Source: Takakia lepidozioides | Lineage: Eukaryota; Plantae; Bryophyta | DNA length: 64,000 nt | Direction of reading: 5' to 3' | Assembly (NCBI GenBank): GCA_030704615.1 | Contig: CM060731.1 | Coordinates: 14,322,001-14,386,000 of the forward strand | Part shown: one piece after another, positions 10,236-53,653 of the stretch | Position numbering within the stretch: position 1 is the stretch's first letter | Layout of the letters: each line of letters begins with the position of its first letter | Notes under the pieces: generated by a model | Seen by the model: the letters and a program-made list of their open reading frames with translations, nothing else | The model's database searches: none | Told to the model about the DNA's origin: nothing | Translations under genes and position numbers: made by a program

Positions 10236-13200
10236 CTGACAGCCCTGGCAATCTTGTTCGGATCCCCTGATCTTTTGCTGCTCGCAACATACTCAGACTT
10301 GTCTGGACCCTTGCCACCAACGCCACCCGCAAGAAACTCCCGATATCTCGTCTGTTGTAGTAGAGCTTGAATCAAATAATCTACCGTCGCCACATACAAA
10401 TCCCGACCCCGCTTTCCAGATTGCTGCAACCATACATTATACACTGTCTCCGCCAGATTGCAAGAGGGCATGTCCGCCATCTCCTCAATTGAGAAGTGCT
10501 GCAAAATGGAAAAACATATATCAGAAAGAGGACAGGCACACCCCAACACAACAGACATGATTGGAAATGGATACAAACTCAATGACATTTGCAAGTGCAC
10601 GCACCATTGACATGCATGCTCCCCATTGTCTGTACCAAAAGTGCCAAAATGCCAGCCAGTCTTCTAGCGCTCTCATACTGTCTTCTGATGCAGCCCCAAA
10701 TGAGAACCATCATGCACGAATTGTCTAGAACAATGTATTCGCCTCTGCCATGCTTTTGGCATCTTTGTACTGTTTGCATAGCCTAAGATAAACAGGCTGC
10801 ATTTCCGGTTTGATGTCTGTCTTTGTATGTTTCTCAAGGGACTGGGTCCAATGGAAAAGACATGTTCGCTCTCTTCCTGGCATTGGCACCTTTGGATCTC
10901 CTGATCCAAACACAATGCGAACAGCATTGAAATTCGCTTGAGCACTGTCGGCCATAAATCCGGCGAAATTTGGAGATGGGACACCTTGGGAGGCCATAAC
11001 GCGAATGAGACTTCTCCACGTTAGCTGCTGCGAATCCGCATCCTCTGATAACATGTCACACACTGCAATTGTCATGACTCGCTAGTAGAAAGAATCGTAA
11101 ACATGACACGCCATTGTAGTCCAGTCTTTCACTCGTTTGATGTGATCAAACATAAGGAAACAGTTCTGAAGATCGCCACCCTTCTGCATGCGCTTCACAA
11201 GACTGACTCCGCTGCCCTCCCGGCTGTGGACATTTTGAAAAGGTAGACTTTGTTCGACCCTTGACCTGGGAACACACTCTCTTGAATCTAGTCATACCTG
11301 CTCCGTCGCTTCAACTCAAAAATGTTATCAACGTACCCTCTATTAGCAGAGCCCATCCTCAATGCATTCACCTGGTTTTTAATGTTCGGCAAGCTCAAGG
11401 TAGAGAAATGATCCATAACATTGTCCAGGGCTGCCCCGTCGAGTTTCCTGCCCACAGAATCTCCTTCACTAAGAATATGGGTTTCCAGGAAAGTCTTGCT
11501 TGCTCCAAGAACAATTGTGGAGGTGGTGGCTGTTGGATTGCTCTCATACTCTTGTCTTATCAACCTGGATACTGTTTCAACACTTTCCTTGTAATCCCCC
11601 TTCGACACTGGATGGTTGTGGAACCCGAAATGCACACCAGCTCTAGTCAAGTTGGAAAAATGTGTGCACCACATAGTAACATTCTTGCTCCACACACTGC
11701 CACACAGGAAGGCGCTCGTTTGCAGAACTTGCAAACAAAAGTGTTGGAGCTTGGAGGTGCTTCACCAGGCTTGAAAGGATTCTCAACGACACCCTCCCAC
11801 TCGCTTTGGTTCTGAACCTCTGACCGCAGGAAATGTCTGCAACTCAAATGCTTGCACCTCAGGTGCCCATTGCACACCGCTCTCCTGAACACGAGCTTGT
11901 CATCAATTTAAATATTGGATGACTTTGTTCAACACCATGGGTGTCCATCGTGTCTCTTGTCCATTCCGTGCATGAGGCTTGAAACAGGTCCACCCCGCCC
12001 AGGTGGCGACATCCCCATCAAAAGACCCCGGAAGGTACTGCACACGCTCAACAGGGACAGTGTCCCAATCAATCCCCCACAATTCACTCTTGAAACCGGG
12101 CATTCCTCTGATTGACTTCAGTTTAGGAATGACACTACACAGGTCCTTCAATTCCGGCACCACGACCACCGGAGAAAGGAATTTTTGGAACGTCCTCCTC
12201 CGAGGAGTCGGAGAGCTCAACAATTTGTCTAGAAGTTGTGGGCTCCGTCTTCACGGCCACATTCCTCTTGTCTTGAACAACAGAAGCAGCAGTTCCCGGC
12301 GTCACATACGAACCAATCAACTACCGGTGAGGAGCTCCAAGGACCCTGTATCTTCCTAGAGGAACTCTCCACTGACTCACAAGTGCGTTTTCATCCGGTT
12401 TCTAGAAAGCATACTTCATCAACTTCCCATCGACACCTTAAACCTCTCTTTCGAGCCACATAGTACCATACTGGAACTCGAAACGCGTTGCTAGGAGATG
12501 TTCTTCCGCAATTGCAAAACCATTGTCATTGGTCTCCTTCGAGAAAGGTACTGGTTTCTCCACAGAGTAAAACTCCGCTTCGGAGGAAGCCATGTTGCTG
12601 CAAGAGAAATTCCCTCGCAGAAGTACGGAAGCCACAAGGTGCGGAAGCCACAACTTCTGTGTGGATTCTTGCTACAAACGATAGTGGGGATTACATTTCT
12701 CATCCTTTGCGTTTCAGACCGAAACCTAGAAGTCCGTCACCTTTACTAACGAGGTCGGAAAAGAACAACACGTCATGTATGTCCCAAACCGTTCTGAAAA
12801 GGTCAGCCAAGACCTATTTTAAAAGCTGACATACCTTTCAGAAACAGTTGTCAAAACAGTTCATAAAACAGTTGGTAAGCAGTTATGTGCCTTTACCGAC
12901 CCATTTGAAATGACGGCGGAGACCGGCATCCCATGCCATCCCAATGTGTTCAGCCACGTGGAACCCGACAATGCATTGAGTGTAGGGTTTAAGAGGAATC
13001 GGCGGCGAACGAATGGAAGATGTTGAACGGGGAGAATCCAAAAATTCTATTGAAATAAGTCATCCATCCGTATCAAATCCATGCGATGGCCATACCTCCA
13101 TAATGAAAGACGTCGGCCACTGCAGAATGGACGAGTGTGCTATTAGGAGGGGGACATGTATGCAGTGAATATATGCATAACCGCCGAGAGCGATGCCCCG

Positions 13201-13809: not shown

Positions 13810-15540
13810 AAAAGGGTAAAAGGTCCATGGTGACATTGTCAAATTTAGGGTATCCAGAAACAGATGTGGTAGTATTGAGGATACAAAGGGAGTGTTTGAG
13901 AATATGGCTGAACGAACCTAGAGTGTGATGATCATGGGATATGCCCCAGCATGGATGCGGGATGGAGGCATTGGAGACCTATGAGCAAATGATGTGGGAA
14001 GGGTAAAGGCAAACCTGGTCACGTTCGTTTGTAGATGCAATGCGTGTGCGAGCCTGGCAGCCTTGGAAAATGGCAAAGAGGTCCATGCTGACATCATCAG
14101 AGCTAGAATTGTACGAGATGTCATTCCAAACGATACCCTGGTAGATATGTATGCCAAATGTGGCAGCATCGAAGCTGCAAAGAGAAGGCAAATACTACTT
14201 CCATTGAGCGTTTTCATCTGTCTTCCTAGTGCAAATGCTTGGGGGCAACACAGTACAACACAATCCCTGTTTTATAAACGAGCATTGATCACGTGAATTT
14301 AATGATGGTAGGATTCTTCTTCGACCTGTTTCAGCCTGGTTTGCCCTCTCATCAGACTCGGCCCTGAATTGCTCGGCATAGCAGAGCTGGCATGAGGGTT
14401 TTACAGATCCTTCACAATGGTGGGACAACCGCGATCGCAAGGTGTGGCTTTTTCTTAATGTACGATGTGAAGAAGTTTGTCCATCATGCAAATGTGGGCT
14501 CTTGGCTCTTGGCTCTTGGCAGGAAAGCTGGAAAGCAGGTGCACACTCACATTGTCCAAAGTGGATTCACGCCGAACGTTTTTCTACTCAACACCCTTGT
14601 CAACATGTATGTTAAGGGGAGCATCATGGATGATCACCAAGTGTTCAACACAGAATGCCTCAACAATCTTTGATCACGTGGAATATAATGTTGGCAGGAT
14701 TTACCAAGCATGGGCGTGGTACGAATGCCTTGGAGACCTGTGAGCAAATGATGCGCGAAGGGGTGAGCCCAACCACATCACGTTTGTTTGTGTTTGCAAT
14801 GCATGTGCAAGCTGGAAAAAGGGAAAGAGGTCCATGGCGACATTGGTCAAAGCTGGAATTGCACCAGATGTCATTCTGAACACTGCCCTGACCTAGACAT
14901 GTATGCCAAATGTGGATGCATTGAGGATGCAAAGGGAGTTTTCGACACTATGGCTAAACAAGATGTGGTGAGCAAATGATGGGGGAAGGGGTGAAGCCCG
15001 ACCACATCATGTTTGTGTGCATTAGCAATGCCTGTGCAAGCCTGGCAGCCCTGGAGAAGGGCAAAGAGGTGCATGGCGATATCATCAAAGCTAGAATTGT
15101 ACCAAATGTCATTTTGAACACTGCCCTGGCAGCTCTGGAAAAGGGGAAAGAGGTCCATGGTGACATTTCAGAGCTGGAATTGTACCAAATGTCATTCTGA
15201 ACCATACCCTGGTGGACATGTATGCAAAATGTGGGTGCATCGAGCCCTGGACAAGGGCAAAGAGGTGCATGGCGATATCATCAAAGCTGGAATTGTACCA
15301 AATGTCATTATGAACACTGCCCTGGCAGCTCTGGAAAAGGGGAAAGAGGTCCATGGCCACATCTTTAGAGCTGGAATTGTACAAGTGTCATTCTGAACAA
15401 TACCCTGGTGGACATGTATGCAAAATGTAGGTGCATCGAGGATGCAAAGGGAGTGTTCAACACTATGGCTGAACGAGATGTGGTGTCGTGGAGTGCGATG
15501 CTTGCAGGGTATGCACAGCAGGGACGTGGGATGGAGGCTT
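13810..15540 (+). pseudogene. PLS-class pentatricopeptide repeat (PPR) gene fragments, internally duplicated
   Basis: Repeated ACASLAALEKGKEVHGDII, TLVDMYAKCG.IEDA and RDVVSWSAMLAGYAQQG motifs with frameshifts. Confidence 0.9.
14380..14442 (+). pseudogene. OSB-type PDF-motif exon fragment embedded among PPR fragments
   Basis: Translates ...WHEGFTDPSQWWDNRDRK followed by GT, matching the W..FF..P..WWDNR..K half of the plant organellar SSB (OSB) PDF motif. Confidence 0.7.
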
Positions 15541-19296: not shown

Positions 19297-22200
19297 ATGA
19301 AAGGTCGCAAGCTGAACATGACACTGAAAGAGATCGCAGAGGAGAGCGCAGCCCTGGAAACCGAACACATGGCGGGGGAGGACTAGCCGCCAGCTCCTGA
19401 TGAAGTTGGGGATGAAACTGCGTCAGAGGACGACACAGACGCTATGGACACAGATGAGGCAGAAGCTCTTGCGAAGGAATCCACGCCGAAGGGGAAGAAC
19501 GTCGTGGAGGAGGAGGCGACGCCGAAGGGTAAGAAGGCTGCCCAAACTGGGAGGACGGCCGCCATTGTTGCTACATCGAAAGCATCTGGGAGTTCTTCGG
19601 CCAAAAGACCTCAGGTGATTCTCTTACTTGCCATCTTCTGTCAAGTTTCCAGGGCATGAAAATTGTGTGCGGTGGCGCACGCAATTTTCTTGCCCTCTTT
19701 TCTGCTATTTTATGCTTGATCGTTCAGAGTAAGACCACAGGGATGCAGGCAATGCACAACACCCAAACCCGGGAGTGACCCACTACTCACCCAAGTAGTG
19801 AGATTAGAGTTCGAGAAATGAGCAATTTCTGGAGGTTCTCTCTATGACATTTTCTCATTTCTCGAACGATCATTACCCTATCTCCGAAGTTACAACTGTG
19901 CTGTGTTATCAGCGACAGAAGCCTTGAAAACTCCGCAAAGTGAGTGTGAGAGAACCCCCAGAAATTGCGTGTGTCAACGCACGCAGTTTCTGGATGTTCT
20001 CTCACACTCACTTTTCTGCCTATAGTGAGATTTGATTAACTGTCTGCAGCATACTTTTATGGAAGAGAGTAGATAGACATTGGGTATGAAATAGGCAAGG
20101 AAATGAGTACCTTTCAGAGGGTAGAAAATTGCGTGTGTTGAAGCACGCAATTTCTGGCAAGTCTTTTACATTCGTAATATATCGTTTTGAGTGTAGACGT
20201 AGAAAAGGAAAGGTGCTACTCAGGTCGAGGAAGAAGTGATTGAGCAGGAACTGGTGGTTGTTGAGGAGGAGGACGATGGCAGGCCCTATGAAGACGGAGC
20301 GAAAGATCTGCTTTCCTTCTCCAAAGTGAATTCTGCCCAAGTCATCAAGGCCATGGGCGTCCCTGGGGGAATAATGATACCCCTATGCCGTCTGATCTCC
20401 ATGCCCTTCGTTCGACCAGCTCTCACGAATGACATTCAAAAGTTGGAACATGATTTTTGCCATGGGTACATAGAGGGTCAATCTGTTTTTTACGTCTCCT
20501 TGGTGGACTCCGCTGGCAGAGAGGTGTTGGTGGACGAGTCCATTGTTGGAGGCTGGGATCCTATCTGACGACAGATAAACGAGGAGTTTGAATCTGTCAT
20601 TTGCAAGAGGCTCGTCACCCAGCCTTTCTCAGGCAAGATGTTTCATGTCTGGGATGGCAACCACCGATTGCTTGCCTGGAGGAACATGATCAAGAGATAT
20701 CATAGCACCAAGGAGGAGTGGCACTACTCTGTGGCCTCAATGGTGCTGGATCCCAAGGGAAACATCACTGCACTGTTGACGGCAATGCATGACGTTAACA
20801 AGTAAGTGTCTCACCTTTTATTGTCCGCATTTTTCCCATGACTGTTTGTTTGCTTTTAGCGCTCGCTGACGACATACCATTGTATGTGACAGGGGAACTG
20901 AAACTGCCCATGTGACAACGAACCTTCTTCACACACTATTCAGGATCCAGAATATCGGCCAGATGCCCCTCAATTCATTCAAGAGCATCGTGAGTGCGGA
21001 GTCATTCAAGAAATAATTTGACATCAAAAACGTCAGATACCTGGTACAAACTGACGAGGGAAGCATTCATGGAGTACATGTACACGTTAAGTATTCCATC
21101 GCTCTAGCCTTCCATTGTCTGTTGTGATTGTCAGTAATAAGTGATCTCATTCCGGATTACGTTTTGCAGCAAGAAATAGTTGAAGCTGGAGAGGAAAAGC
21201 AGAGTACTATTTGAAAAACCCGGAGGGTATGAGAACGTCCAAGGGAGTGGCGGAAGCCATGAAGTTTACGATGCATGAGGTACGGAAGAAGCTCATGAGC
21301 GCTTTCGTGAAACAGCTGAGAATAGCTGACCCTGATTTCGGTCCCAAGTTCCTTAACCAGGTGAGGATCCACTGGAACAATAACACCAAACCGGAGATGA
21401 CACAGGAAAAGCTTCACCGGTTGTCAACTGTAGCGGTGGAAGCAGACCTGAAAGTGAAATGGTTGGAGATTTGGAATTCCGACCAAACTGTCAAGGATAC
21501 ATACTGCTTCCCTAGGGGTGAAAGAGATGAGAACATCAGGCACATCAAACCTTCAGCAACCAAGTTCTTGATACATGGTTGCACAAAGCCACCTACTTGA
21601 GCCAGGTACTTTTCAAGACTTTCTTTGCTCAAAATTTTGAGAATATCTTCCCATGCATGGAATCTAACCCATGCATATGTATACCTGCAGATTGAAGCTT
21701 GTACAAACAAGGTGCTGGAGAAACAGCTTTATGACTACAAAATTACCATGACCATGCCTGAGGACACTTTGGAGGATTACTTGAGGCAGTGGAAGGCCAC
21801 TACTTGGAGCAACTGCTTCTTTAGAGAGTTTTCCCGAGATGGAGGCATCTCCCGCACAAATGACTTTGACTAGCAGTACGGGGCGGAGGAACCATGAAGA
21901 GGGTCCTATATAGGTTCGTTGATTTGTTTTATGTTTGGAAAATATCTTTGGCAATTAGTAGACAGACAGTTTGTGGCCATGCAAAACTGCATGTGCCAAC
22001 GCACGCAATTTTGGAGGGCCACAAACCCAGATGTGTTCTCTCCTCCATCATGTCTTTCATTGGCAGTTCTGAATGGAATATCTGTCTGCCGAGAATGGGA
22101 TATCTTTCTGCATATGGAACCCTTGGTTTTCTCCTGTTCTTACATATGTTACTTGTGAGTGTATTTCAGTTGCCTCATGCTCAAGTATGTGTGCACCCCA

Positions 22201-24350
22201 AAATTGTGTGCGTCGACGCACGCATTTTGGGAGGGCCGCAATATATGTTTTTTTGCCTTCATTGTCTAAAAGTGTACCTCCTTTTTTTTGTAGGTATATC
22301 AAGAACGTGCTCATTCCGGGAAAAAACCTCAGTAAGTACCCTGCCTTCATCGATTTGTGGACCTCTGACCCCTCTAATAGTCAGACCATGTACACGGTAG
22401 CCATCCTCAGAGACTACGGAAGATATCACCTTAAAGACTGCTGCTGGTATCTTGACATTCCCAAATCAGATTGCCCCTGGTATGAGTTGCAGACACGGAA
22501 CCAGAACGACAATGCGGAGTCTTTGGCCCCTCTCACTGACAAAGAATTGCATGAGAGGAATCTGCTGAACCTCGCTGAGAAGGAACCCGCAGCCAACAAA
22601 ACTCATGTGAGAGGGAAGGGAAAGGGAAAGGATACAAAGGACGAAGGGAAGGAGAAGGCCACCCAAGGGGAGACTGCGGGGGGTGAGGTAGCGCAGACCC
22701 CAATTGCAAACAAGGAACAAAAACGTAAGGGGAAGTTTGAGCCATACGACGCAGTGGAGCACCCATCTAGAATCCAGCGAGAATGTAAATGCGAGTTTGT
22801 CAATGATTCGTTCCTTGCCATGATGGAAAGCAGAAAATCTGGTTACACTGGAGAACCCTCTCGAACTTGGGGCAAGCTGTGTGCATTCCTTGAGTCGGTA
22901 AGCCAATTCCCACTATTTGTCTCCATTAATGTTTTCCATTTTGGATAGTTATTTAATTTTTGTCGTCTGTCTGTTTTCCGGTTTCGAAAGGGCAGTGTTG
23001 GGTCAATGGTACTTAGAAACCATATGGTGCCGACATGGTGATTGTGGACATTCCGGATGGGCTGCCAGTACCGGATATTCTACCCACAGGCACCTGCCCA
23101 ACATGGAATGCATTCGATGAGAGGTACTGGCGGTGGGTCTTTCATTTTGCAATTTTTTTTTATCGGATGCAGGGGTTATTGTAATGATCCAGTCCGTCAA
23201 TACGAAATGTCGACGGGAGCTTGCAAGCTACCTCAAGGTCTTGGGGATGAAAATCATCGAAACGTGGAATGGTGTGAACAGCCTGTACTTGACAAAGGGC
23301 GACTGTCCCGGACAAATGGTAAACGACCTGCTCTTACCTGCTTCATTTGAAGTTCAATTTCACCCCTGCAGAAATGAGTGCGTCAACGCACTCATTTTCG
23401 GTGGTTTCAAGCACTGCTCTTTCCAGATGATTTTTTGGGGATTCACTAATATGTGCTTCATGTTGTCTTGTGTGTAGACCCGCCTTTTTGAGGCCGTATG
23501 CCTCGTCAGAGTGCACCTGCTTCAACTCCCACAGCAGTGAAAGAGTTCAGGCTTCATGGGGGAGGTTGTTTAATCAACGATAAGTTCGATCCAGTGGTGG
23601 ACGACATGCACTACAATTACGTGGATTCCAATGTGTGCTTGCAAAAGTTCCACACCATGGAGAGGGGAAGAAGGAGAAGAGCCCATCATTTATTCAAACA
23701 ATTGTGGAGAATAGTTCCCATCCGGGGGCGCACATCGTGGACCTCACTCTTGGCACAGGTTTCACCCCGAACCTGTTGCGGTGTTTTCTTCTTGGTGCAA
23801 AATTTGATTCATCGTCCTAAGAGTACTCTGTCTTGCAGGAGCTTCGTACCATGCTTGTAAGGCAGCGGGCACACATTTGTTTGGTATGGAAGGGGATGCG
23901 GCCATTTTCAATGACCTCCTCCATAACTTGGAAGCGCCATTGCCTGCCGCCCAACAACATGAGGGTATAGTGAATGTGGAAATCAACGAAGGGGACGACA
24001 AAGTCCTGGACGACAATTTCGCATGTGAGTAAGTTATTTTTCTATAAGTATCCGATTTCTCCCACGAAAATGGCCCCCCCTTTCTCATTCATGGTGGCTA
24101 ATGCAATTGTGGTACTTTGGGTGGCAGGATATTGGAAGCTATTCCTTTGGTCGACGTCTCTTTTCTTCACAGTGACTTGTGGTGCAGCCCTCCACGTTCA
24201 TACATCCTACCCGACTACGTGGAGGCCATTGCTCGTCAACACAGTTTCATGTTATCTCCCCCATGTGCTCGGAAGCACAACAGGCACCTCGGAGCTCGGG
24301 TTTACGTCGATGATACAGCACAAGTTTCAGGGGATAGTTCTAGTGACTGA
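19297..24350 (+). pseudogene. Spliced ParB/Srx-like + beta-class amino-DNA-methyltransferase-like gene (copy B partner, all domains present)
   Basis: Acidic/basic N-terminus; IPLCRLISMPFVRP...FHVWDGNHRLLAW (DGNHR at 20653-20667); ADMVIVDIPDG (DIPDG at 23047-23061); KEKSPSFIQTIVENSSHPGAHIVDLTLGT|GASYHACKAAGTHLFGMEGD. Premature stops at 19384 and 20566, plus frameshifts. Confidence 0.8.
19658..23397. repeat. Dispersed intronic palindromes AAATTGCGTG(T/C)GT-CA-ACGCACGCAATTT (copy B type)
   Basis: Copies at 19658-19689, 19958-19993, 20124-20154, 21982-22013, 22197-22231 and 23372-23397 (perfect AAATGAGTGCGT-CA-ACGCACTCATTT), all within predicted introns. Confidence 0.85.
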
Positions 24351-24647: not shown

Positions 24648-25320
24648 CCTAGGGGATGATGTTTGTATTGACTCTCGGGTCCAACGCAAGTTCAAAGGCA
24701 GCCTCCTGATGCCTAACATTGGTTATGGGTCAAACAAGGAGACAATGCACCTAGGGGATGATTTGTGGACTCTCGGGCTCAACGCAAGTTCAAGGGCAAC
24801 ATCCTGATGCGTAACATTGGTTATGGTTCAAACAAGAAGACAGTGCATCTAGTGGATGATGTATGGACTCTCGGTTTCAGCACAAGTTCAAATGCGGGAT
24901 CCTTATGCCTAACATTGGTTATGGGTCAAACAAGAAGACAAGGCACCTAGGGGATGATTGGTGGACTCTCGGTTTCAGCGCAAGTTCAAGGACAACATCC
25001 TCATGCCTAATATTGGTTATGGGTCAAACAAGAAGACAAGGTAGACGTTTTGTCGATTTCTGTTACACAATGTTGAAAGACCCGGAATTCCTCCTCATGC
25101 ACAAACGAGAGCCAGATTGATTTTGTATGTTGTTGTATAATGGTCCTGATGAAAAACCATGAAAGTTGCAGTGCTCTCGTAAGATACATGAGCACATTTC
25201 TACCTCACTGGCAAGGGCCGCAATACGCATTAGAGTCCAAACCATGTTTAGCGTGGTCAGGTGGTGCGTTGCAGGAAGTATAGTGCTGAAATGGCTCACA
25301 ATGTGTCGACACTGAAGAGG
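24648..25320 (+). pseudogene. RPL32: Captured 60S ribosomal protein L32 (eL32) fragment, first part amplified 4x in tandem
   Basis: Units of ~98-102 bp at 24648, 24750, 24848 and 24946 encode [25 protein letters not shown]. They are followed by ...EFLLMHKR, an intron-like spacer ending TTGCAG, then KYSAEMAHNVSTLKR. Confidence 0.88.
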
Positions 25321-26203: not shown

Positions 26204-27031
26204 TGTAGTAAGCACTCGGACAAAGTCGCAAAATGAAAGATCACTCTCACATCTGCTGTGTTGTCTTTTTCTATGTTGCTGTCATCTGTCTACATTTCCC
26301 CAAATGCCAGACATTCATTAAATCTTATCAAGTGCTTCATGATGGATTTTAGGTACAATTTCTAATGTTTGTGCAAACAACATTGATCGTTGTGCTTGGT
26401 GTTCATAAATGTTAGAATGACATCCTCGCTCAATATTCATCCACTCTATCGTCCATTCACGATATTTCATCCACATTTGTCCACAACTATTCATCCCCAT
26501 TCATCCATACTCGCAGTGTCCCATCCACATTGGCTCTGCTTCACCCTCATTAACTTATCCACAACCATTCTAGACTGATGACAACAACATAAAATACCAA
26601 ATTAGCATGGCATTAAATCATTTGAGGACCATTGTAGACTGATGACCTGGACATTAATACATCCACAACCATTTCAGTCTCTACAAACACTATCATTCTG
26701 CAACATTCACCAACATTCAACTCTCTTCTGCACCTCGTCTCGTCGCCCACACATGGTTCTCTGTCTGCCAAATGCGCAATCCGCGGCTATAGACCCCCCA
26801 TTTGCCTCTTCGGTCCGCGGTTATAGGGCCATGCCTATGAAAATGATGTGGCATGACACGACGTGGCGTCGGGCACGCTGGCGAGGTCGGCTGACGTGGC
26901 GTCAGACCCGTCAGCCAACGTGGCAATAACTGATGATGTGGCGTGAGCCCGCCTATGCTCACGCGCTCTCACGCTCACGCTCTCACGCTCACGCTCTCAC
27001 ACTCACGCGCTCTCACGCGGAAGCATCCCCC

Positions 27032-27965
27032 CCATTGGCCTGTCACGAATTCGGCCTGCCAACACTCCTGCTTATGTTGGGCATTTCGACGTTTGGGGAG
27101 GAGGTCTACACATAGACCCAAATTGCGACCCAGTTGAATCTGATGTTGTTCACAACTATGTGGATGCGTCCCAGACTCTGAAAAAAACTGGAGGAATTCC
27201 ATGGAGAGGTGCCCGAAAGGAGTCGCCCGCGTTCATGCAGACCTTCATTGAGACATGCAGCCGGCATGGTGGCAAAATGGTTGACCTCTCCATGGGCACA
27301 AGTGCATGCCGAAACTCTTCTCCATTCTTCGTTGCACATGTTCCTCTCCTGTTTTGGCTTGTGACATGGTTTTGTGCTTTCATTCGCTATCCTGCAGGGG
27401 CTTCGTTCCATGCCTGCAAGTGTGTAGGAAGACATCTTTTTGGGTTTGAGGGGGACGAGGAGCTTTACTCTCGGGTCATCGCTCCACTCTATGAGGGATC
27501 CTCGCATTCGACCCAGACTGAGAAGATTGTGGAGGAGCAGGATCTGCAAGAGCCGGATGCTCTAGATGTGGATTGGGATTTTTCATGTGAGTAAGTGCTT
27601 GTTCTTTTGTGGCAACTCATAGATCCCATGACGGATCCTGTTGGCGTTCCTTTTTGTGGCTGAAGTTTGGCTTCTAGAGTATTTAAGAAGTTTACTCATT
27701 ACTGTGTGGTTGCACGAGTCATATGACGCCACGGTTTCTGTCGTTCTTTGCCAACCCGGATTTTTTCCCAAGTCCTCCAGCACAATTTCATTTGCCATCT
27801 TATGCGGAGGCTGCGGCTAAGGAGTATAGTCTGCTGGCATCTCCCCCTTCTCTGCTTCACGAAAGACATGGTTTTCAGCAGAGCAGGGCTAGCATCTTTG
27901 TGGATAGTTCTACCTTCGTCCTGAACAGTGCGTCTTGTAGTAGTGGATCTTCTTTGTCCGAATGA
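27032..27965 (+). pseudogene. 3' exons (methyltransferase motif I region and tail) of a ParB-MTase partner gene, probably copy A
   Basis: GGGLHIDPNCDPVESDVVHNYVD...PWRGARKESPAFMQTFIETCSRHGGKMVDLSMGT|GASFHACKCVGRHLFGFEGD...DFSCE and a last exon SPPAQFHLPSYAEA; homologous to 23498-24350. Confidence 0.85.
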
Positions 27966-29115
27966 ATCGATTCTTGTGAAGGGTTTGTTTAAAAACAACG
28001 AGTTCACCTGTATGCCTTCTTTATGATTGGATGTGAGCCTCTCTCTCAACCTTGTATAACTGGGAAAATGACATGTGGTCCTTCTCAATCAACAAAACAA
28101 TGTGGACTCAAAGTTTGCAATATACACTGCACCCGACATAATTGATTTTCAAGCAAGACAAGCATGGTTTCATGGATTTCGGAGCTCAAGGGTTTTGGGA
28201 GCTACCACTACAAACAACTATCTATTCTTTCATTTATGTCATTCATCCACCTCTCATTCGTTATACAGACATTCATCCGACATTCATCCCTCATTCATCC
28301 AAACAACATCCATATCCGACCTTGTGATACTGGCCACTCTGCACAGTAATAGGTCTTCTAAATCGACTGGACGTCCGCGGTTATAGGTAGGCAGGTCCTC
28401 AAGCTGAGCAGATTTCTGCTCACGCAATTTTCTGCTCGCGGGATCTGCGCACACAATAGCATCCCCCCCCAAGGTGGGTGCATTTGAGGATGCAAAGCAA
28501 GGAACTTATGTGTACTCTGCTTATGTACTGGGTGTGGCAGGGAGGCTTTGGAGATTGTGAATGGGTGATGCCTGATAGGTGAACCTCATGTGTATTCTGA
28601 TGTTTGTGCCAGTCTTTGAGCACTGAAAAAGTGCAGATGGATCTGTATGTATTTGTAAGCCTATACGTTCCGATGTGAGGTTCTCTGGTTTTATGACAGG
28701 AACAAAACAATTGTGAGCAGGAAGTGAAGGGTCATCTCCTATTGGAATTCCTCAATCAGCATAGCTGGGCTTGAATCAAACATCAATGGACCAGGCCTTT
28801 CGTCTTCACTAGGTGTTGTTGCTAAAAAAATAACCAATTGTGAGAGGGTCCCTAATCGAATGATGCTTCTAGGTACAGGTGAAGTAGAGGAATATAACAT
28901 AATATTACATCGCACTTTGCACCTAACTTCCCAACAAAACGGCGTAGCATCAACCTTGGTCTGAGAGAGAAAGCCACAGTTCTCTATATAGATTAGCGTG
29001 ATTAAATTTAAAGTCGCACTCTTAGGGTTTCATTCTCCTCAAAAACCCACCGATATATACTTTCAGCTGCACCCGCCTCTCTCTCTCTCTCTCTGCACCA
29101 TACATACAAACAACC

Positions 29116-29820
29116 ATGTCAACGTCGGAAATAGCCGACACAATAGACATTGTAACGGACCAACAAATCCAGGAAATAACCCACCAAGACATGACAAAAG
29201 AGAAATACGACAGTTTCACGTCCAATGACCATCATGTCCTAAAGGTGGGGAACACATGGAAGCGCCTGCCCTATAGTACAAACTTCCACAACGCCTTGTG
29301 GAACGTCCCTTCGGACCATGAAGAAATAGCAATCTTCGTAGGTATTGCAAAATTCCCCTACCTTGGCAAAACCGGGAATGACAGATTCGTGACTTTCGCC
29401 GAAGAACTAAAAGACGCAAAATTCACAATATTGATAGAAGAGAACCATTTCCTGTTCGACTACGCAAATACAATAACGGAATGGTCCGATAATTGGAGGA
29501 GGAGAGGCGAGGACATGAGGTGGATGGGTGGAAACAACATGAGCTTCATGAAAAAGCTCCTAAAAACTAAAGCAAACAACTCTGGCTCGACGTCCGGTAA
29601 CAACAAACGTCAAAAAACAAACAACGACGAGATGTACAATACAATAGAAGTCCTTAACGAAAATGGCCAAAAAATGGATGGAGAATCCGTATGTTCAGGG
29701 CATCTCGTTGCAGTCAAGTGTAACATCCGATATTGGATGAATTTCCGTCACAAGAAACACGGGCTTTCATTCCAACTAAAAGGGGTCAAACTGTTGGCCA
29801 AAGCACGACAGGAGACATAG
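29116..29820 (+). CDS. Intronless 234-aa protein, putative OB-fold ssDNA-binding protein (T7 gp2.5-like)
   Basis: Intact ATG-to-TAG ORF with TATA-like and CT-rich sequence upstream. GIAKFPYLGKTGNDR and VLNENGQKMDGESVCSGHLVAVKCNIRYW...GLSFQLKGVKLL follow the gp2.5-type strand pattern (recognised from memory, not searched). Confidence 0.55.
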   Translation: MSTSEIADTIDIVTDQQIQEITHQDMTKEKYDSFTSNDHHVLKVGNTWKRLPYSTNFHNALWNVPSDHEEIAIFVGIAKFPYLGKTGNDRFVTFAEELKDAKFTILIEENHFLFDYANTITEWSDNWRRRGEDMRWMGGNNMSFMKKLLKTKANNSGSTSGNNKRQKTNNDEMYNTIEVLNENGQKMDGESVCSGHLVAVKCNIRYWMNFRHKKHGLSFQLKGVKLLAKARQET

Positions 29821-30316
29821 TCAAACGACGACTATTGGAGCAAAAGCATAGCTTGGTAGAGCTTAAATTAGACACATCTAAACGTTCCATGTCAGGGCCA
29901 CCATATTTTATAAAGACCGTCCTCCTTCTCCTCTTTAAAAAGTCTACATTTTGTCCCAATGCATGCTCACAACGGATAATAAAAAAATACTGATTTATCA
30001 TAGTCCAAATCTACTTGTTGTACCAAGACGACCCATGGAAAACCCCAACCCCCCCCCCACCAATCGGAACTGCGTGACCGACATTTTGGCAGGCTGCATG
30101 ATCCGTACTCTACGATCCTCGAGTATGGCCATCCGTCCGGACGTCCTTCTCAAAAGTCGTCGCTAGTAGTGCGGAACAACGCGAAGCCCTAGTATATAAA
30201 AAAAAACTACAGTTTGTTGACAGGGAGGAGGTTGTGGTTTGGTGGTAGATCGATGCTGATGTGGCTATGTAGGTCTAGGGTTCCATTCCCTGAACATGCT
30301 TCCTTTGGTAGGCGGT

Positions 30317-32232: not shown

Positions 32233-35200
32233 TCAGTCTGACTCGGAGTCAGTACAATGTATCCCCGCTTCCTCTGCATCTAAGTCTAAGTATTTTAGAA
32301 CACCGGATCCACGCTGGATACACCTACGGCTGGCCACTAAAAAGTCAGGGGATAGGGACTCGGCCGCGTGAAGTGCCATTGCTTCGGCATAAACAGGAAG
32401 CAGAAAATTGGAAAGGGGGCTGTCGAAAACAGACTCGCCAGAAATGGTTTATACTCGATTATAACACATTCTACTAGAGTGGAGCTGCAGAGAACATTGA
32501 AACTCATCATGAAAGCACAAGCAGAAGGGAGACGGCATACCAGCTGACCAGGGAAACCCCCTTTCACAAGGTAGAGGCTGTTCACACAATTCCATGTGCG
32601 CAAAACTTCAAACCCTGAAGACTTGAGGTATGATGCCAATGCCCGACGACTATCATTGTCACATGACTGAAAAAGCAGAAGTGTCCCTGCATCAGAGAGG
32701 AAGTTGTTACAGAACCCGAACACCCAACTCCAGTAGTTGTCCTCGAATTTGTTCCAGCCTGGCGTCTTGCCCTTTGGAAGAACTTCTGGCACAGCCTGGC
32801 CATCCGGGATGTCGAGAATGACAATGTCGGCCGCATAAGTTTTCTGCACACCGCACACGAAGGTGGGACCTGTGCTCACCTGCAACAGACATGTTTTTTA
32901 TAAGAACGATGGCAAGAATGTTTTCAAAGAACGAGACTGAAATACTGCCAACGAAACTTTCAGAGAAAAAGGAAAGAAACTGGAATTCTCACCAGATTGA
33001 GGAATGAGATTATATTGTCCCAGGTAGGGGATGACACCCCAGTGTATCCTCTCTTTCGACTCTGCATCATCGACAGCCAACCCTCATTAACAATTTTCAT
33101 CTCTCCTGCCGAATCAGAACGGGAAGGGTGTGGCTTGGCATCGAACACGCACTGAACAGTGCGGGTATATCTTCCAACAGTAAAGTCCTGCCCACTCTCC
33201 ATCTCCTTTTCTTTCTCCTTCCCCTTGTCCTTTTCCTTCTCTTTGGACTTGTCTTTGTCCTTTGGCTTTGCTGGTGAGATGGCTATGACATCAACAGCCT
33301 TGTCTTTTGGTTTGCGGCCCGCATTCTTTCCCTTCTGCGGCGTTCCCTGAGCATCAGGCTCCTTGGCAGCCAATGTTGCTATGTTTCGTTGGTACTCTTC
33401 GTCAGTCAAAGGCGCCAACATCTTAGCGTTATTGTTCAAGTATTTCATATGCTGTTCTTGAAAGGTCGTGTGCTCCGGTGGGCAGTCAAGGTACCAGCCA
33501 CAGTCTCTGAAGTGAGAAGGACTCTAGTCCTTCAATATCCTTGCAGTATACATGGTTGGATCGTTTGCAGGGTCCGACCACATGTCAAGATAGTCTGGAA
33601 ATTCCGTTCAAGTGATTTCCTTCCATAAGCACATATTTCGTGTACCTGAAAAAAAGAGATAAATCCCAACCCACAAAAGCGCTCAGTGAGTAAGATGCAA
33701 GTAGAACAGAATGAAAAAAACATAGATTGAAATGGCTCTGAGAACTGCTCCAAGGACCTTCCAGGACCACGCGACTGCTCCAGATGTGAATGTCGTCAAC
33801 GCCATTCAAAACATTCCATTCAATGATACTGTAAATACACCCTAATCCAGGTGAATGCAAACTATCGTTTTGGAATGACACAAACATAGAAGTGAATGTC
33901 GTCAACGACATTCACTAATCAAGCCTAATTATTCCTCAAGTGAAGCAAAATCACAGGATGGAAATCATAAACTCGAGTAAGGAACCCTCCAGGAAAACTC
34001 AATGCACATTCATAACGAACATATCACTGAGGACCTCACAACAACACTGTATGTGAATGGCGTCAACGCCATTCAAAAAAATACAAAAAAGAAACCAATT
34101 ACTTAGCTCCCAATCCATGTAAATTCAAAGTGTCGCTGTTGAATAATACAAACACAGAAGTGAATGTCGTCAACGACATTCACTTTGGATTTCTCATAAC
34201 AGAGCTTATCAAGCCTCCAGATTCCTCGCAAGAGGCAAAAACAATGCAGAACAACTGAGTGTCTGCATTGACATTCAGCAAAATGAAGTGAGGAACCCTC
34301 ACTGTAACCTCTATGGACATTACAAAAATTTACATAACTCTGAGGACCTCTCAACAACTCCGGATGTGAATGTCGTCAACGCCATTCAAGGACATTATCA
34401 ATTCTAATCAGGGACACTATAATTACACCCTTAGATCCTAACCAGGTGAATTCATATACTCGCTTAAGAATGACTCAGACAAATAAGTGAATGTCGTCAA
34501 CGACATTCAATCTGGATCTATGATTGCAATCCTTATGAAGCCACATTTTTTCCCAAAAAAAGCAATAGAGTTTCAAGTATGACATTGCACCTGTACACAA
34601 CTCGCATCATGGCCCACTCTCCTCCAACCTGACTGTCAAAGTCGTTGGACCGTAAAATGTTACCATCTTTGGAGAACTCCCGGAAAAAACAGTATCTCCA
34701 GGTGAGACCTCACCACTTCCTTATGTATGCCTCCAATGACATTTGGGGAGGGGAAACAATCGAAATGTTCAGGTCCTTCAAAGTCTGATCCAACACAATG
34801 ACGGCGCGCTTTTCGAGCTGCAAATAGTATATTTGTCAGAATTGCAAATAAGATACTTATCACATACTTGAAGAGAAGAAAACAACATGTTTGAATACAC
34901 ACCTGACTCCAAAATGTAGCCTTGTGGAGCCAGTTATCAAACACCAAATCACTGATTCCTTCCACCTTTGTGCCAGGCTGTATGGTGCTATTTGGGAACT
35001 GATTCAAGTCCTTTACTGTTTGATCTGAGTTCCATATCTCCAGCCACCTTATTTTTGTTTGTGGGTCGACCATCGATATGGCCAGCCGGTGCAATTTCTC
35101 CTGCTCCATCTCCGGATGCACATGCTTGTCATAGTGTGTTTTGATCTGCTGAAGGAACTCAGGACCAAGTCCAGGATCTACTATTCTAAGCTGCTTTCCG

Positions 35201-36989
35201 AAGGCGGACATCAATTTGGTTCTTCGCATTTCAAACTCCTTCTTTATTGCAACTTCCACACCCTTTGATGTCCTTAGTTCCTCTGGTGTAGTGCGGTAAT
35301 ATTCGGATTTTCCCTTCTCAGCTGCCTCTGCCAGTTCTTGCTGCATTGATTCAAGTAGTGATTAGCTCCGAAGGGACTACAAACATGTATTCGAAAAGTA
35401 AACAGAGTACAGACTCGGGCTTACCGCATACATGTATTCCAGAAACGCCTCTCGTGTCAAAGAATACCAAGTGCCTGCAGCTCTTCCTGTTTTGCACTTC
35501 TTGATGATATTGGGTGGTAGTACTGTCCGAAAATCATCCAGCTTCATCAGACCAATCCTCTGAATTCGGAATAGTGTGTGAACCAAGCTTGTTGTCACAT
35601 GCGATTTCTCTGTCGATCTGCAAAAACATTGGAAACATTGCATTCCTTAACACTGTTTTTTGAGGATTAATAAGACACTACAGAGGGAATGAAATCTCCT
35701 GGATGACTTACTTGTTCACGTCGTGCATAGCTGTAAGAAGCCTAGCGATGTCGTTTCCAGGATCCAAAACCATTGCCTCCACAGCAACATGCTTGTCTTT
35801 GTCTTTCGCATGGTGTTTCTGAATGTATCCCATCCATGCCAGCAATCGGTGGTTGTCGTCCCAGACATAGAACATGTGGTTGCAGAATTGCTGGGTGTTC
35901 TTTCCCATCATGAGGCCCAACTCGAACTCCTCATTGACATCTTTCCAGCACTCATCCCAGTTATCACTGATCTCTGGAGACACTAATGTGCTTTTCCCAT
36001 TTATATCCGTCAGTGACACATAAAAAACTTGTGCACCAAGTCTATATCCATGCACAAAATCACTCTCCAATTTTGTTATGCCATGGGAAAGAGGTGGACG
36101 CACAACAGGCATTGATATCATCCGGCATAGAGGGATGTTCAGACGCCCTCCAGATACGAGCATGTCCCTTATAACCTCCTGAGAGTTTACCTTCTAGAAT
36201 GACATGAGTTCTTTCACCTTGTCAAGGTAGTGCACTTCAGATTCATCTGCTTCATCTGTATTCTCTGAGCTTTTTGCGGACTCGTCCCCATCTCCAGATC
36301 CTCTCCCCTCTGATCCTGTAGGCTTCGACCTCACAGTTTTCTGCACGATGCCATTCAGTTCTGACTGAGTAATTTGCAAATAGTGAATGGCGGTAACGAC
36401 CATCACTCTGTCTCAAAGAAACTCACTATGAATGGTGTGAAACAATTCAGCACAATCTACACAAGCAAAGCTGATATTGCCGTATTCAAAACAAAAGCGA
36501 GAGCGATAGCGAACGGCGTTAACGACAATCACAAAAGATAAGGACCTGCCGGATCGGTGTTGTGTAATGACATCTATGTGCAACTGATTGGCGGCAACGA
36601 CATTCAGTATAGTTTAGGACGGACAGTAAGTGCAGATTATTCAGATTGACTCCACTCAATCTCTACGCATATCTTCAACAATGAAATGTAAGGTAGATAA
36701 AACTTACTGGCGCCTTCTTAGGTTTTGAAATTGGATCCCCTTCTGCAACTTTCCTCTTCCCTCTCACATCTGCTGGAATTTCTGTCTGCTCTAGGGTTTC
36801 TGGACCTTCTCCTGTGCTTCCACCTCCTTCAGTGTCCCTGCGAATCATCTTTGCCTCCAAAGGCTGGCGCAATCTTATCGCCGACTGTGTCACAGCCGCT
36901 GCCTTAGTGTCCGTCTGCTCTTCAGAATCAGTCTCCGTGTTCACCTGCTGCCTTGGCCCTGTGTTCTCCAACAAACGACGCCTCGTCAT
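32233..36989 (-). pseudogene. ParB-methyltransferase partner gene of copy C (motif I exons missing)
   Basis: IPLCRMISMPVVRP...FYVWDDNHRLLAW...AMHDVNK; QLRIVDPGLGPEFL; AADIVILDIPDG...FLSDAGTLLLF; last exon SPLSNFLLPVYAEA...DSESD. Splice positions match copy B. Confidence 0.82.
33786..34509. repeat. Intronic array of palindromes GTGAATGTCGT-CA-ACGACATTCAC (copy C type)
   Basis: Six copies at 33786, 33892, 34053, 34160, 34366 and 34487, arranged as three ~270-310 bp units of two; degenerate copies in intron 1 at ~36385, ~36512 and ~36586. Confidence 0.92.
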
Positions 36990-37845
36990 TTGCTCTCTTG
37001 CTCTGCGTCTCTCTCTAAGGGAAGTAAAATAAAGAGACTTTCTTCTCTTTCGTATTGTAGAAGGAACCCTCTCCAGCTTGACTACCACTCTCTCTCTAAG
37101 CGCGAAAAGTAGAAAAACACAGTGACTCCCGATTTCTTGCGGGATTGCCTGGGTTCTTGCGTGTCTCTAGAAGCATCGGATTCCCTCTCGCGTGACCGTT
37201 ACACATAGTCGTTCCCTTATTAGTGCACATGCCAGCAATTGGTGTACAGCTGTTTGTATTCAGTTATGGATGTCTGACGTGTGTCGCCCAAAAAAAACGG
37301 CGTGTTCTGTATTAGAACGGTTTCAATATTTAAAAATAACAGCGAATCCCAGAAATCTTGGCGCACAGTCTTACACAAATAAATGTAAATGAACGAGAGT
37401 TTGATGACAAATCTTGGAATATCATACACGGTCATCCTTGTTAGTCAAACCCCACATTCGTTTCACATTTGGAACTTTCCAGGTGCGCATGATCATTGGT
37501 AGTAGTATAAAGATACATTTACTTAATCTGCAATCCCATCCTCAGATCCTGTGGCATGCTTCCAGGAAGTCGGCTTTGTTATTGGGTTTATTGATGAGGT
37601 TCTGGTTAACGGTTTAACAGCTGCCGACACTGCTCCTAGGGATACTCTGACCACTGGGCCCACAAGAAAAGTAATTAAAATGGACGGCTGCATATCTGGA
37701 AAGAATAACATAATATGCACAGTCGTTGTCTGATCTTCCTCCGCCATATTCTCTACTCATTCTTCAACTGTGTTCTAGAGACATCAGTAAACCGATTTAC
37801 ACTAGATTTGCGATAGCAAGGTACAAACGTACGCGAGGAAGGAAG

Positions 37846-40800
37846 ATGGCTTCCTCTGAAGCGGAGTTCTTCTCTGACGACAAACCAGTGCCGCTCTCCC
37901 AGGAAGTCCTTGACAATGGATTTGCAATTGTTCTGGAACATGTCTTGGCTACCCGTTTTCAGCTGCAGAATGACTCCATCTTTTTGGAGAAAGAGGTGTA
38001 CGATCTTAAAGGGAAGTTGTTGAAATACTCTTTCCAAAACCGTGATGAGACGGCTCATATCAGCCAGTGGAGAGTGCGTCCTGGTCGATACAGAGTACTT
38101 GGAGAGCCTCGACGAAAGTCCCTTGGGTCATATGTGACGCCCGGGACTGCTGCTTCGGTTGTTGAAGACAAGAGGGAGGTGGTGGTGAAAAAAGAACAGA
38201 CGTCCTCCACTCCAATCGTTGAGCTTTCGGATTCTTCCGATGATGACATAAGTGAAATTCCAAATCCAGTCTTTCCTACTGTGGTTGGAGAAGCTGATGA
38301 AGAAGAGATTTGTAGTGTCATTCCAAAATTGTGGGCGATGGGAGGAATGGCTGGATTCAAAAGTGAGTTGCGGGGAATTGATTGGGAATCTTTGAAGCAG
38401 GTGCCTGTGAAGTTCTTGCCGGAGACTTTTGATGGCGATATCCTATTCGAGCTGCCTCCTCCTCCGCGAGTTGGAGGTGTAACAATCATGATGCATGGAA
38501 TGGACAATAAACACGACGGGCACACGTGGTGCAGAACAAAAACATCCAATATTCAGATTGATGACAAGCTTGTTTTCAGGAGGACAGTTTGCAATGGACA
38601 CCTTAGGTGTGATAATTTGAATTGCAGACACTTTCTTCAGTCTGGGGTTCATAATCAAAGCGAATGGGAGGGTCTGGCGGAAAATCCATTTCAGCCTGGG
38701 ACTGCCCCTCCACCGGCAAACACTTTCGTCTGCAAATTCTGCAAACTTGTGCCATCCTGCTTGGCGCTCTGCGGAGCAAGAATGTACTATGTTGTGCACC
38801 GTTTGAAAACAATGACAAGAGCTTGTGTGCATTTCGGATTCCATAACCATCCTGTCTCGAAGGGGGATTACAGGGAGAGTGTTGAGACAGTATCGAGGTT
38901 GATCAAACAGGAGTTCGGGAGAAACCCATCCGCAACAACATCTGCAATTGCTCTTGGCGCAAGCAAGTCCTTCTTGGAAAGCCATATTTTGAGTGAAGGA
39001 GATTCTGTGGGGACTAAACTTGACGGTGCAGCATTGGACCTGGTCATGGATCATTTCTCCACTTTAAGTTCACCTAACATTCGGCATCAGATCAATGCAT
39101 TGAGAATGGGCTCTGGGATCAGAGGCTACATAGACAATATTTTGGAATTGAAACGAGTGAGCAAGTACGATTACATCCAGGACAATGTATTCCCAGGTCA
39201 AGGTGCCATCAAAGTTTTTCTTTTCAAAATGTCGACTGTTGGGGAGGGCAGTGGGGTTAGCCTCGTGAAGCGGATGTAGAAGACTGGGGACTTGCAGAAC
39301 TGTTTTCTTATGTTTGATCATGTGAAACGAGTGAAGGATTGGACGACAATGGCTTGTCATGTCTACGATCCAGTGTACCAACGAGTTATGACAATTGCAG
39401 TTTGTGACATGCAATCCGAGGATACAGAATCCCAGAAGCTTATGTGGAATTCCCTGATACGTGTCATGGGCTGCCATGGGTTGCCATCTCCAAATTTCGC
39501 AGGTTTCATGGCGGATAGTGCTCAAGCAAATTTCAATGCTGTTCGTATTGTCTTCGGATCGGGCGACCCAAAAGTGCCTATGCCAGGAAGAGAGCGTACA
39601 TGTCTATTCCATTTGACACAATCTCTGGAAAAACATACAAAGTCGGACATCAAACCAGAGATGCAGACTCAGCACCGTAAATTGTGTAAAGAGTACAAAG
39701 ATGCTAGAACAATGAAGGAGGCGGACACTTTGTTCCAGACAATTCGTGCCTGGTGGTTCTCTTCTGGAGCTGCATCACTTGAGAGTATGAGAGCATTGGA
39801 AGATTGGCTGGCGTTTTGGCACTTCCGGTATAGACAGTGGGGAGCAGCCATGACAATGGTACGAGGCTTCTATTTCATGCTTTATTCATACATTTGCTTT
39901 CCATATTTTTGACTCATTGCTTTCTTTATGTTGTTTCCTGTGCACTGTTCTGAAGTGTGGTTATCCTCTTTGCAGAACATGTCCATTGAGGAAATGGCGG
40001 ACATGCCATCTTGCAATTTGGCAAAAACTGTGCACAACGCATGGTTGCAGCAGTCTGGGAAACGAGGTCGGGATTTGTATGTGGCAACAACAGATGATTT
40101 GATACGTGCCTTGCAACAACAAACCCGATACCGTGATTTCTTACGAGGTGGGGTTGGTGGCAAGGGTCCGGACAAATGGGAGTTGATGCTGCGTGCTGCA
40201 AACAGATCTGGGGATCCAATCAAGATAGCACGGGCGGTGAGCATGTATGCCCAGGGAACGCCACTTGTTTCTAGAGTTCCACATCTTGAAGGGGAGGAGA
40301 GATTCGGCTCCTGTAAGAGGAAATTGAACACTCCACCTGGTTCGGATTCAGATTCCCACAGGGCAGACCGTGATAACTTCTCGAAGCCTCGTGTTCCCCT
40401 GCATGACAGCTCCATGTCCGGAACCTCCATTGTGGAGGAACCTCCAACACGACGGCAAGCTCCAGCATCAAACAGTGCCACTGAAATGGTGCAGGAGAGA
40501 AACAACCCCTTGATGTGCTTGAGTCCGTATGCCCCGACCACGTTTGGCACATAGAACGCACAAGTGTAGGGTCTCGTGTGAAATGTACAGCGATCAGGGC
40601 AACTAATTTCGAGAAGTGCACTTCATCTATATCCAGAGGTGGTGCCCAAACTCCTGCTCCGACTTTCACGGGCTTGATGCGTCCATACGGTCAACCAGAA
40701 GCCAAGAACCACAAGTTCTGGTTCTGCGCAGATGATTGTGCCAGATGTGTGCATGGAACTGTGCGTCCTTCCGTAGTGATGAAGCCATCTCCTCCAACCG

Positions 40801-41360
40801 TTTGGCCCGTGAAGGTGGGAACACATCTCAGCTTTCAGGAGATTGAAATGCTGGAGGAGGCAGGTTTTTCCCTTGCGAGACAACCCCAACTCCATGCATG
40901 TGCTACTACTTCTGCATCCTCCCAGGTCCCCCCCGCAAATTCTGACTTGTGGCCAACCAAACGAGATGGAAAGCTCGTTCGGCGTTTCCCTCCAACCGCC
41001 GAACACTTTGGCAAAGTGGAGTCCGCAAGAATGCTCCAAGCTCGTGTTGGAAGCACCATGGAAGTACCCGATCTAGGATATGGTCGGGTATTCACAATCA
41101 TCACTTCCACATCTGCTGTTCATGACAGGACCTACGACATCACGGTTTCCAATTTCCCCAATTGCACATGTCCTGATTTTGTGAATATGCTATCAACCAG
41201 TTTGGGCAAGAGAGGTAAATTCATACCCTGCAAACATTTGTATTTCATATTTTTGAGGAGGATGGTTTGCGATCCCAAACGTGACAACTTCATTCATCAG
41301 GCCACTATGAGTTTCAACGAGGTCGATACTCTTTTGCAGCGGGATACAACACATGGGTAG
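37846..41360 (+). pseudogene. MULE-type DDE transposase with GCM-like domain and SWIM finger (copy C), nearly intact
   Basis: One intron at 39859-39975; LMFDHVK, FMADSAQANFNAV, RTCLFH and SWIM CTCPDF...CKHLYF. Lesions are TAG at 39277, NLAK instead of NLAE (40024-40026) and a frameshift near 40515-40550. Confidence 0.92.
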
Positions 41361-52995: not shown

Positions 52996-53653
52996 GTCAA
53001 TTATCTTAGGTGGGGATTACTAGCCAGGGGATTACATTGGGTCAGTTCTAGAAGCATTCATTTGCACTCAAGAGTGTACTTAGGTAACAATTCGACTTCC
53101 CCGACGCAGGGGCAACATATCTGACTAGGTAGCTGCAAATTTGTGGCTGTTTGAGATGTAGAATAGTTGTAAAGGTGTGCCCCTTTCAGAGACCAGAGTA
53201 TGAAGCCTCGAGGTTGAGAGAGATCATTTGCCCATTTGATGCATGGAGATAGGCATGCTGTCAAGGATGGGATATAAATTGGAGATGAAGTTTAGTGGGC
53301 TTGTTGCTTGGTTGCATCACTCTCAGGTGGATGTTCTCTGCGCACTCTGGTCCCTCAAAATCCTTGCCAAGCACTATGTGTGATGTGATCATCTTGTCTT
53401 CAAGTTTTCATGCAATGTAGCCAGAGGTCTCTGTGGTCCCCATAGTCCCCTGCACAAACATATTATAAGAAAAGTCTGCTGTCCTCTGAACTCTTTACGT
53501 ATAATAAGAGTCAAGGTGGACTCAGACACTGTCAGACAAGGTGGACGTTAATAATGATGTTACCTCTCGGAACCCGTACTTGGGATTCCCCTGACAAACT
53601 CACGGTCACGCAATGTATTCATGTAGTATTAAGGTTGCTCGGGAGTTCTGGCG

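Follow-up and report, generated by a model that had tools for sequence, protein, structure and literature searches.

An intact accessory gene of a probable DUF6570-type Helitron derivative encodes a candidate T7 gp2.5-like single-stranded-DNA-binding protein

The open reading frame (ORF) at positions 29116-29820 of the window (the whole 64-kb stretch of DNA analysed here) is best explained as an accessory gene of a DUF6570-type Helitron, located in a probable deletion derivative and encoding what is likely an SSB (a protein that binds single-stranded DNA) of the T7 gp2.5 type. We assign this reading as a whole a probability of about 0.58. Its first part, that the ORF belongs as an accessory gene to a land-plant family of DUF6570-type Helitrons, is highly probable. 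Given such a gene, sequence comparison makes a T7-type SSB the somewhat favoured product.

Results

An intact ORF among broken transposons

The window consists of plant-like DNA crowded with broken transposons, among them a Ty3-type retroelement (4.7-8.6 kb) and elements bearing SWIM. The following features of the ORF and its surroundings are referred to below:

28700-29094 (+): upstream block; comparison with contigs of the same species finds similar sequences at about 92% identity
29054-29115 (+): leader in which a TATATA word, then a possible splice acceptor formed by AG at 29065-29066, (CT)9 and an A/C-rich run precede the ATG; it could be a promoter or a 5' UTR intron
29116-29820 (+): intact ORF of 234 codons in one ATG-to-stop frame; probable Helitron accessory-gene family member and candidate T7-type SSB
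29116-29229 (+): acidic N-terminal extension, residues 1-38, with 9 D/E versus 2 K/R
29605-29616 (+): basic KRQK stretch, residues 164-167, in a loop, with similar basic stretches in the relatives P0002 and P0003
29635-29796 (+): residues 174-227, where the model is most confident (ten-residue blocks at pLDDT 73-86), matching the C-terminal half of the gp2.5 OB fold, with conserved K201, Y206 and W207
30157-30192 (+): Helitron family 3' terminal sequence with a short GC stem-loop, ending in CTAG before T (24.1 bits, E 1.5e-6)

Base-shuffling the 4 kb around it 300 times gave ATG-initiated ORFs of at most 177 codons, and in none of the 300 was a length of 234 reached. Residues 21-231 of the protein are collinear with its relatives, both halves being matched in order, and the ORF therefore requires no intron. 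These results agree with the initial annotation, which had described an intact, intronless and A-rich gene; the A content is 37%, versus 22% in the host phosphodiesterase gene at 53.6 kb. The further statement that this was the only long undisrupted gene in the first 43 kb held for the integrity of the ORF and not for its being the only long frame: longer stop-free frames exist (for example, 521 codons at 37714-39279), and these are pieces of broken transposon genes.

The TATA-like and (CT)n leader noted earlier is present as sequence, with (CT)9 spanning 29077-29094 and the TATATA word occurring twice, at 28985 and at 29054. Upstream of it, the block at 28700-28872 has the character of an exon from a multi-copy host sequence, being preceded by AG and followed by GT, with contigs departing from the window at both borders; the TATATA words are for this reason not necessarily the promoter. 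Within the intron-like block lies a short frame (28885-28950, +) that we take to resemble a Copia integrase motif. Decayed repeats at 28466-28620 and 13850-15485, the former matched by same-species contigs at high depth over 28484-28571, presumably represent PLS-class PPR motifs, judging by their appearance.

Several other elements were recorded in the window. A broken SWIM-bearing DNA transposon, with a weak SWIM match, occupies 37714-41357 (+) and has inverted look-alikes at 10291-12139 and 2801-3041. With it go several divergent accessory frames without a Pfam match at 32340-37166 (-), and similar frames lie at 21184-22945 and 26947-27591. A nucleotide pyrophosphatase/phosphodiesterase gene at 53633-55117 (+) has an uninterrupted frame of 494 codons (Pfam E 4e-99). 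Repeats made of tandem 98-bp units and of spaced units of about 50-76 bp with a palindromic core were found at 24664-25038 and 33752-34512.

Relatives of the ORF lie upstream of Helitron genes

The ORF protein was not recognised by Pfam or PDB. A phmmer search over 1.84 billion representatives returned 19 matches (best E 5.5e-17 at 30% identity), 18 of which are fragments of one family; the remaining one, a repetitive spider protein, was dropped. The ORF's relatives share 25-45% identity with it and are interrupted ORFs that occur in multiple copies in land-plant DNA. One outcome named beforehand as counting against the initial annotation, best matches to an ordinary plant family, did not arise.

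Using an alignment of the commonest subfamily as query, a metagenome scan yielded 78 loci that reduce to 32 distinct insertions, some of which may be one insertion in sister species; as loci were selected by similarity to the ORF, the sample favours derivatives that retain it. The DNA around them is AT-rich, and plant genes (U-box/ARM, RING-H2, chaperonin) flank the insertions. All 78 loci are broken, with a longest stop-free match of 137 aa, and the scan consequently showed no active autonomous element.

Downstream of the ORF, sequence is shared between different insertions for up to about 7 kb and then ends at a common point. This shared stretch encodes DUF6570 (Pfam E 1.6e-21 in L021 and 2e-11 in L030), Helitron_like_N (E 1.4e-9), PIF1 (E 5.7e-12), Pif1-2B and an Ulp1 protease. 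At least one of DUF6570, Rep, PIF1, Pif1-2B and Ulp1 was found on the same strand downstream of the ORF in 22 of the 25 insertions with at least 2.5 kb of downstream sequence, the other seven being too short; the queries came from L021, itself one of the 22. The Rep (HUH) and PIF1 helicase domains that characterise autonomous Helitrons were found in relatives only, and all copies are broken. According to the cited sections of the HELIANO study, DUF6570 marks the HLE2 group, in which RPA and Ssb-like_OB genes occur and RPA is enriched upstream of RepHel (PMC11417382). Set against this description, the position of the ORF before DUF6570, Rep, PIF1 and Ulp1 in its relatives identifies it as an accessory gene of a Helitron family. 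Together with the family 3' end that follows the window ORF (see below), this strongly supports the earlier suggestion that the gene is cargo of a rolling-circle element.

A second suggestion had been that the gene is an endogenous DNA-virus relic. A giant virus or phage once integrated at this place, or a viral gene transferred directly and unrelated to transposons, would fit an ORF that is intronless and A-rich, and T7-type SSBs are described, in the part of the source cited, as virus-specific and present in Megavirales (PMC4889955). The searches gave this idea no support: IMG/VR, GTDB genomes and GenBank phages yielded no relative, every relative that could be placed lies on a plant-like contig, mostly beside Helitron parts, and a Helitron end follows the ORF. 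We regard the viral-relic reading of the window locus as largely refuted and give it very little probability, while the family as a whole may have a remote viral ancestry.

Additional features were noted in the related elements. In one Helitron subfamily, a second broken ORF without a Pfam match lies about 1 kb upstream of the SSB-like gene (L012, 8942-9454, +; L021, 8844-9239, +); its start looks F-box-like by eye, which is our assumption from the sequence. Extra 3' termini lie 4-5 kb upstream on the same strand in L044 (about 2850) and L065 (about 950), and second ORF copies on the opposite strand in L072 (7411-8013, -) and L075 (16403-17026, -), which suggest tandem or nested Helitrons. The Ulp1/C48 protease frame directly precedes the 3' end, in the last 600 bp of the element (for example, L021 16630-17019), and persists in short derivatives from which Rep and helicase are gone (L002, L005, L006 and L067).

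A Helitron 3' terminus follows the window ORF

The 3' terminus at 30157-30192 was absent from the initial annotation and was first found in this follow-up. Its match in the window was first spotted by eye, and we then scored it with a profile built from 10 ends in related loci, without the window sequence. The profile matched at 30156-30197, 337 bp past the stop codon of the ORF, and this was the only strong match in the 64 kb (24.1 bits, versus 6.6 for the next match in the window and a maximum of 12.8 over 50 shuffles). Seven ends that had not gone into the profile scored 18-38 bits, and the family 3' end was found downstream of the ORF in 17 of the 32 distinct insertions. In addition, same-species contigs join the window at 30147 from differing upstream sequence, which is what a shared Helitron end predicts. 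The ORF has a CpG observed/expected ratio of 1.01, exceeded by only one of 90 equal blocks; the ratio is 1.06 up to the terminus and falls to 0.43 beyond it; this lack of depletion as far as the terminus suggests a young insertion.

In agreement with the earlier observation that no Rep or helicase gene is visible nearby, neither 2853 fragments from related elements nor six RepHel/Ulp1 profiles (best E 0.78) revealed a Rep/helicase remnant in the window. Within the 64 kb, the copy lacks the RepHel of its own that an autonomous Helitron has. No 5' end was located, in the window or as sequence shared among loci, and searches for terminal inverted repeats, including an inverted copy of the 3' end upstream, returned none, the 5' ends being undefined. 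Most likely, the locus is a non-autonomous derivative left by a deletion that removed the transposase gene. Among the relatives there are short derivatives with both ORF and 3' end retained, 1.4 kb long in L050 and about 2.4 kb in L005, L006 and L067.

The gene could also be Helitron-derived and by now domesticated, as a host-selected nuclear protein that binds or anneals ssDNA, with the terminus a leftover. No other complete stop-free copy was encountered among all the relatives, no second copy of the ORF occurs within the 64-kb window, the leader is plausible and the ORF adjoins exon-like host sequence. However, the terminus is well preserved with its CpGs, as in a young insertion, one same-species contig is 94% alike over 29760-30017, which hints at a second copy, and the relatives in other plants are decayed and not conserved. 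Domestication is, on balance, improbable.

Resemblance to T7 gp2.5

A likeness to T7 gp2.5 had been proposed before any search and was here checked against the actual T7 record. When the ORF protein was compared with 38,880 PHROG families, phrog_112 (gp2.5-like) ranked first, over residues 174-229, at an E-value of 0.023 that is not significant. The family profile scored 30.5 against a 30-sequence gp2.5 profile, versus 11.9 for the reversed control and no more than 18.1 across 60 block shuffles; aligned globally, residues 66-234 pair with gp2.5 1-185. The hhalign probability of this match is 15-29%, with local significance over 54 residues only. A 10-sequence, shallow profile of the Enc34/DUF2815 branch, which itself matches gp2.5 at 95.5%, scored 12.2 against the family, inside the range of its 40 shuffles (9.5-18.4). 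Thus, the proposed likeness held as a weak signal above shuffled controls and did not extend to the DUF2815 branch. Among 87 family fragments searched at E up to 1, two matched phrog_112 and none matched RPA or Ssb-like_OB in Pfam; seven unnamed PHROGs were matched by three to four fragments each, and phrog_112 consequently does not stand out in the family scan.

Of the structural checks that had been recommended, the AlphaFold model reached a mean pLDDT of 54.8, with the N-terminal half under 50 and a barrel that is not closed, and fold searches with this low-confidence model gave no fold match. ESM Atlas look-alikes, flagged as weak evidence, are Basidiomycota clusters (score 0.94-0.95). A predicted helix at residues 111-129 (pLDDT 56-69), followed by basic residues, aligns with the hallmark helix of gp2.5 in the global alignment, the confidence of this region and of the strands preceding it being low. 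K201 is a lysine in 31 of 33 alignment rows. W207, at a position that is aromatic in 27 of 29 rows, aligns with gp2.5 Y158 in the local alignment, and the polar partner N161 of gp2.5 is not clearly placed. The acidic C-tail of gp2.5 is absent, as initially noted: the last 20 residues hold 1 acidic and 4 basic residues. The protein has an acidic N-terminus instead, a property shared with P0002 (16 D/E versus 2 K/R in 50 residues) and P0009 (14 versus 4 in 45). The KRQK stretch may be a nuclear localisation signal, which we presume from a pattern match. Because the acidic C-tail is absent and the OB fold is putative, we describe the protein as one that most likely works like a T7-type SSB and not as a member of that class.

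For T7-type SSBs, the cited sections give the long helix after strand 2 as the hallmark (PMC5686142, PMC2896510), and Y158 of gp2.5, the counterpart of which in Enc34 is W150, is reported in the cited part to be needed for ssDNA binding (bioRxiv 10.64898/2026.02.22.705581). The ORF could instead be a Helitron accessory gene that does not encode an SSB, either with another fold or as an old captured gene whose beta-rich C-terminal half resembles gp2.5 by chance. Such a gene would explain the absence of any Pfam match, the DUF2815 branch not replicating the gp2.5 match, and PHROG results that are not significant for the single protein and at noise level for the family. Against it, gp2.5 came first among 38,880 families after having been named in advance, its profile scores far above shuffles, and the helix position, the basic residues and the aromatic are all in register. 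Moreover, HLE2 elements are known to carry SSB genes upstream of RepHel, as far as the cited sections go (PMC11417382). We consider a product other than an SSB less likely, and retain a T7-type SSB as the preferred reading.

Discussion

A model for a possible role of the protein in transposition

During rolling-circle transposition, RepHel (HUH nuclease and PIF1 helicase) would nick the element and peel off one strand. We suggest that the ORF protein coats the peeled strand, blocking re-annealing and nuclease attack, a task that would parallel the one assumed for the RPA genes of other Helitrons. By analogy with gp2.5, as described in the cited part of PMC2553585, it might also aid strand annealing. 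Its acidic N-terminus would then substitute for the acidic C-tail of gp2.5. Having no RepHel of its own, the window copy would presumably move or act only with transposase supplied in trans. A wider and more tentative proposal, which we rate at slightly below even, is that land-plant DUF6570-type Helitrons carry their own SSB of the T7/giant-virus type as a standing part of transposition, with an N-terminal acidic arm and a nuclear signal, and that they are the first home in eukaryotic chromosomes of a 'virus-only' class.

If the assignment is true, a separate, conserved SSB from a class described as virus-specific would point to repeated selection on Helitrons to supply an ssDNA-handling protein of their own, and would bring a connection to viruses into the debate on where Helitrons came from. 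Annotation based on Pfam is blind to this ORF family. The intact 234-aa copy offers a reagent to test ssDNA binding and a boost of Helitron transposition by an SSB; should the fold not be confirmed, the ORF would be an orphan transposon gene of modest interest.

Comparison with known systems

SSB genes in Helitrons are already known in the form of RPA or Ssb-like_OB, and the cited sections of the HELIANO study treat them as dispensable RPA fragments captured from hosts (PMC11417382). T7-like SSBs, in turn, are described as virus-specific in the cited part of PMC4889955. Among the publications searched, we found none on a T7-type SSB in Helitrons.

In size, and tentatively, by alignment, in the order strand-strand-long helix-strands, the protein resembles T7 gp2.5 (PDB 1je5) and Enc34 ORF6/DUF2815 as the cited sections describe them (PMC5686142, PMC2896510, PMC2553585). 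It also appears to share with T7-type SSBs the basic residues after the helix and the aromatic at the Y158 position. In contrast to gp2.5, it has about 65 extra N-terminal residues with an acidic start and a basic loop insert, and lacks the acidic C-tail, its OB fold being putative; its family shows no detectable match to the Enc34 branch.

Among transposons, the relatives resemble HLE2 (Helitron2/Helentron), as set out in the cited sections, in carrying DUF6570, Rep, PIF1 and Peptidase_C48, in the separate accessory ORF upstream of RepHel and in non-autonomous copies that keep their ends (PMC11417382). In contrast to the SSB genes of HLE2, the ORF family matches neither RPA nor Ssb-like_OB; no terminal inverted repeats were found, the 5' ends being undefined, and the 3' end resembles the canonical hairpin-plus-CTAG type. 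Ends of this canonical type, and Helitron-only accessory genes of unknown function, are shared with the HELPO1 Helitrons of Pleurotus ostreatus as described in the cited part of PMC4289320, whose cap genes lie downstream of RepHel, whereas the ORF of the present family lies upstream. By architecture only, the closest counterpart of the window copy is helpo1.3 of Pleurotus, which the same source describes as a 1.5-kb non-autonomous Helitron with one expressed orphan gene (PMC4289320).
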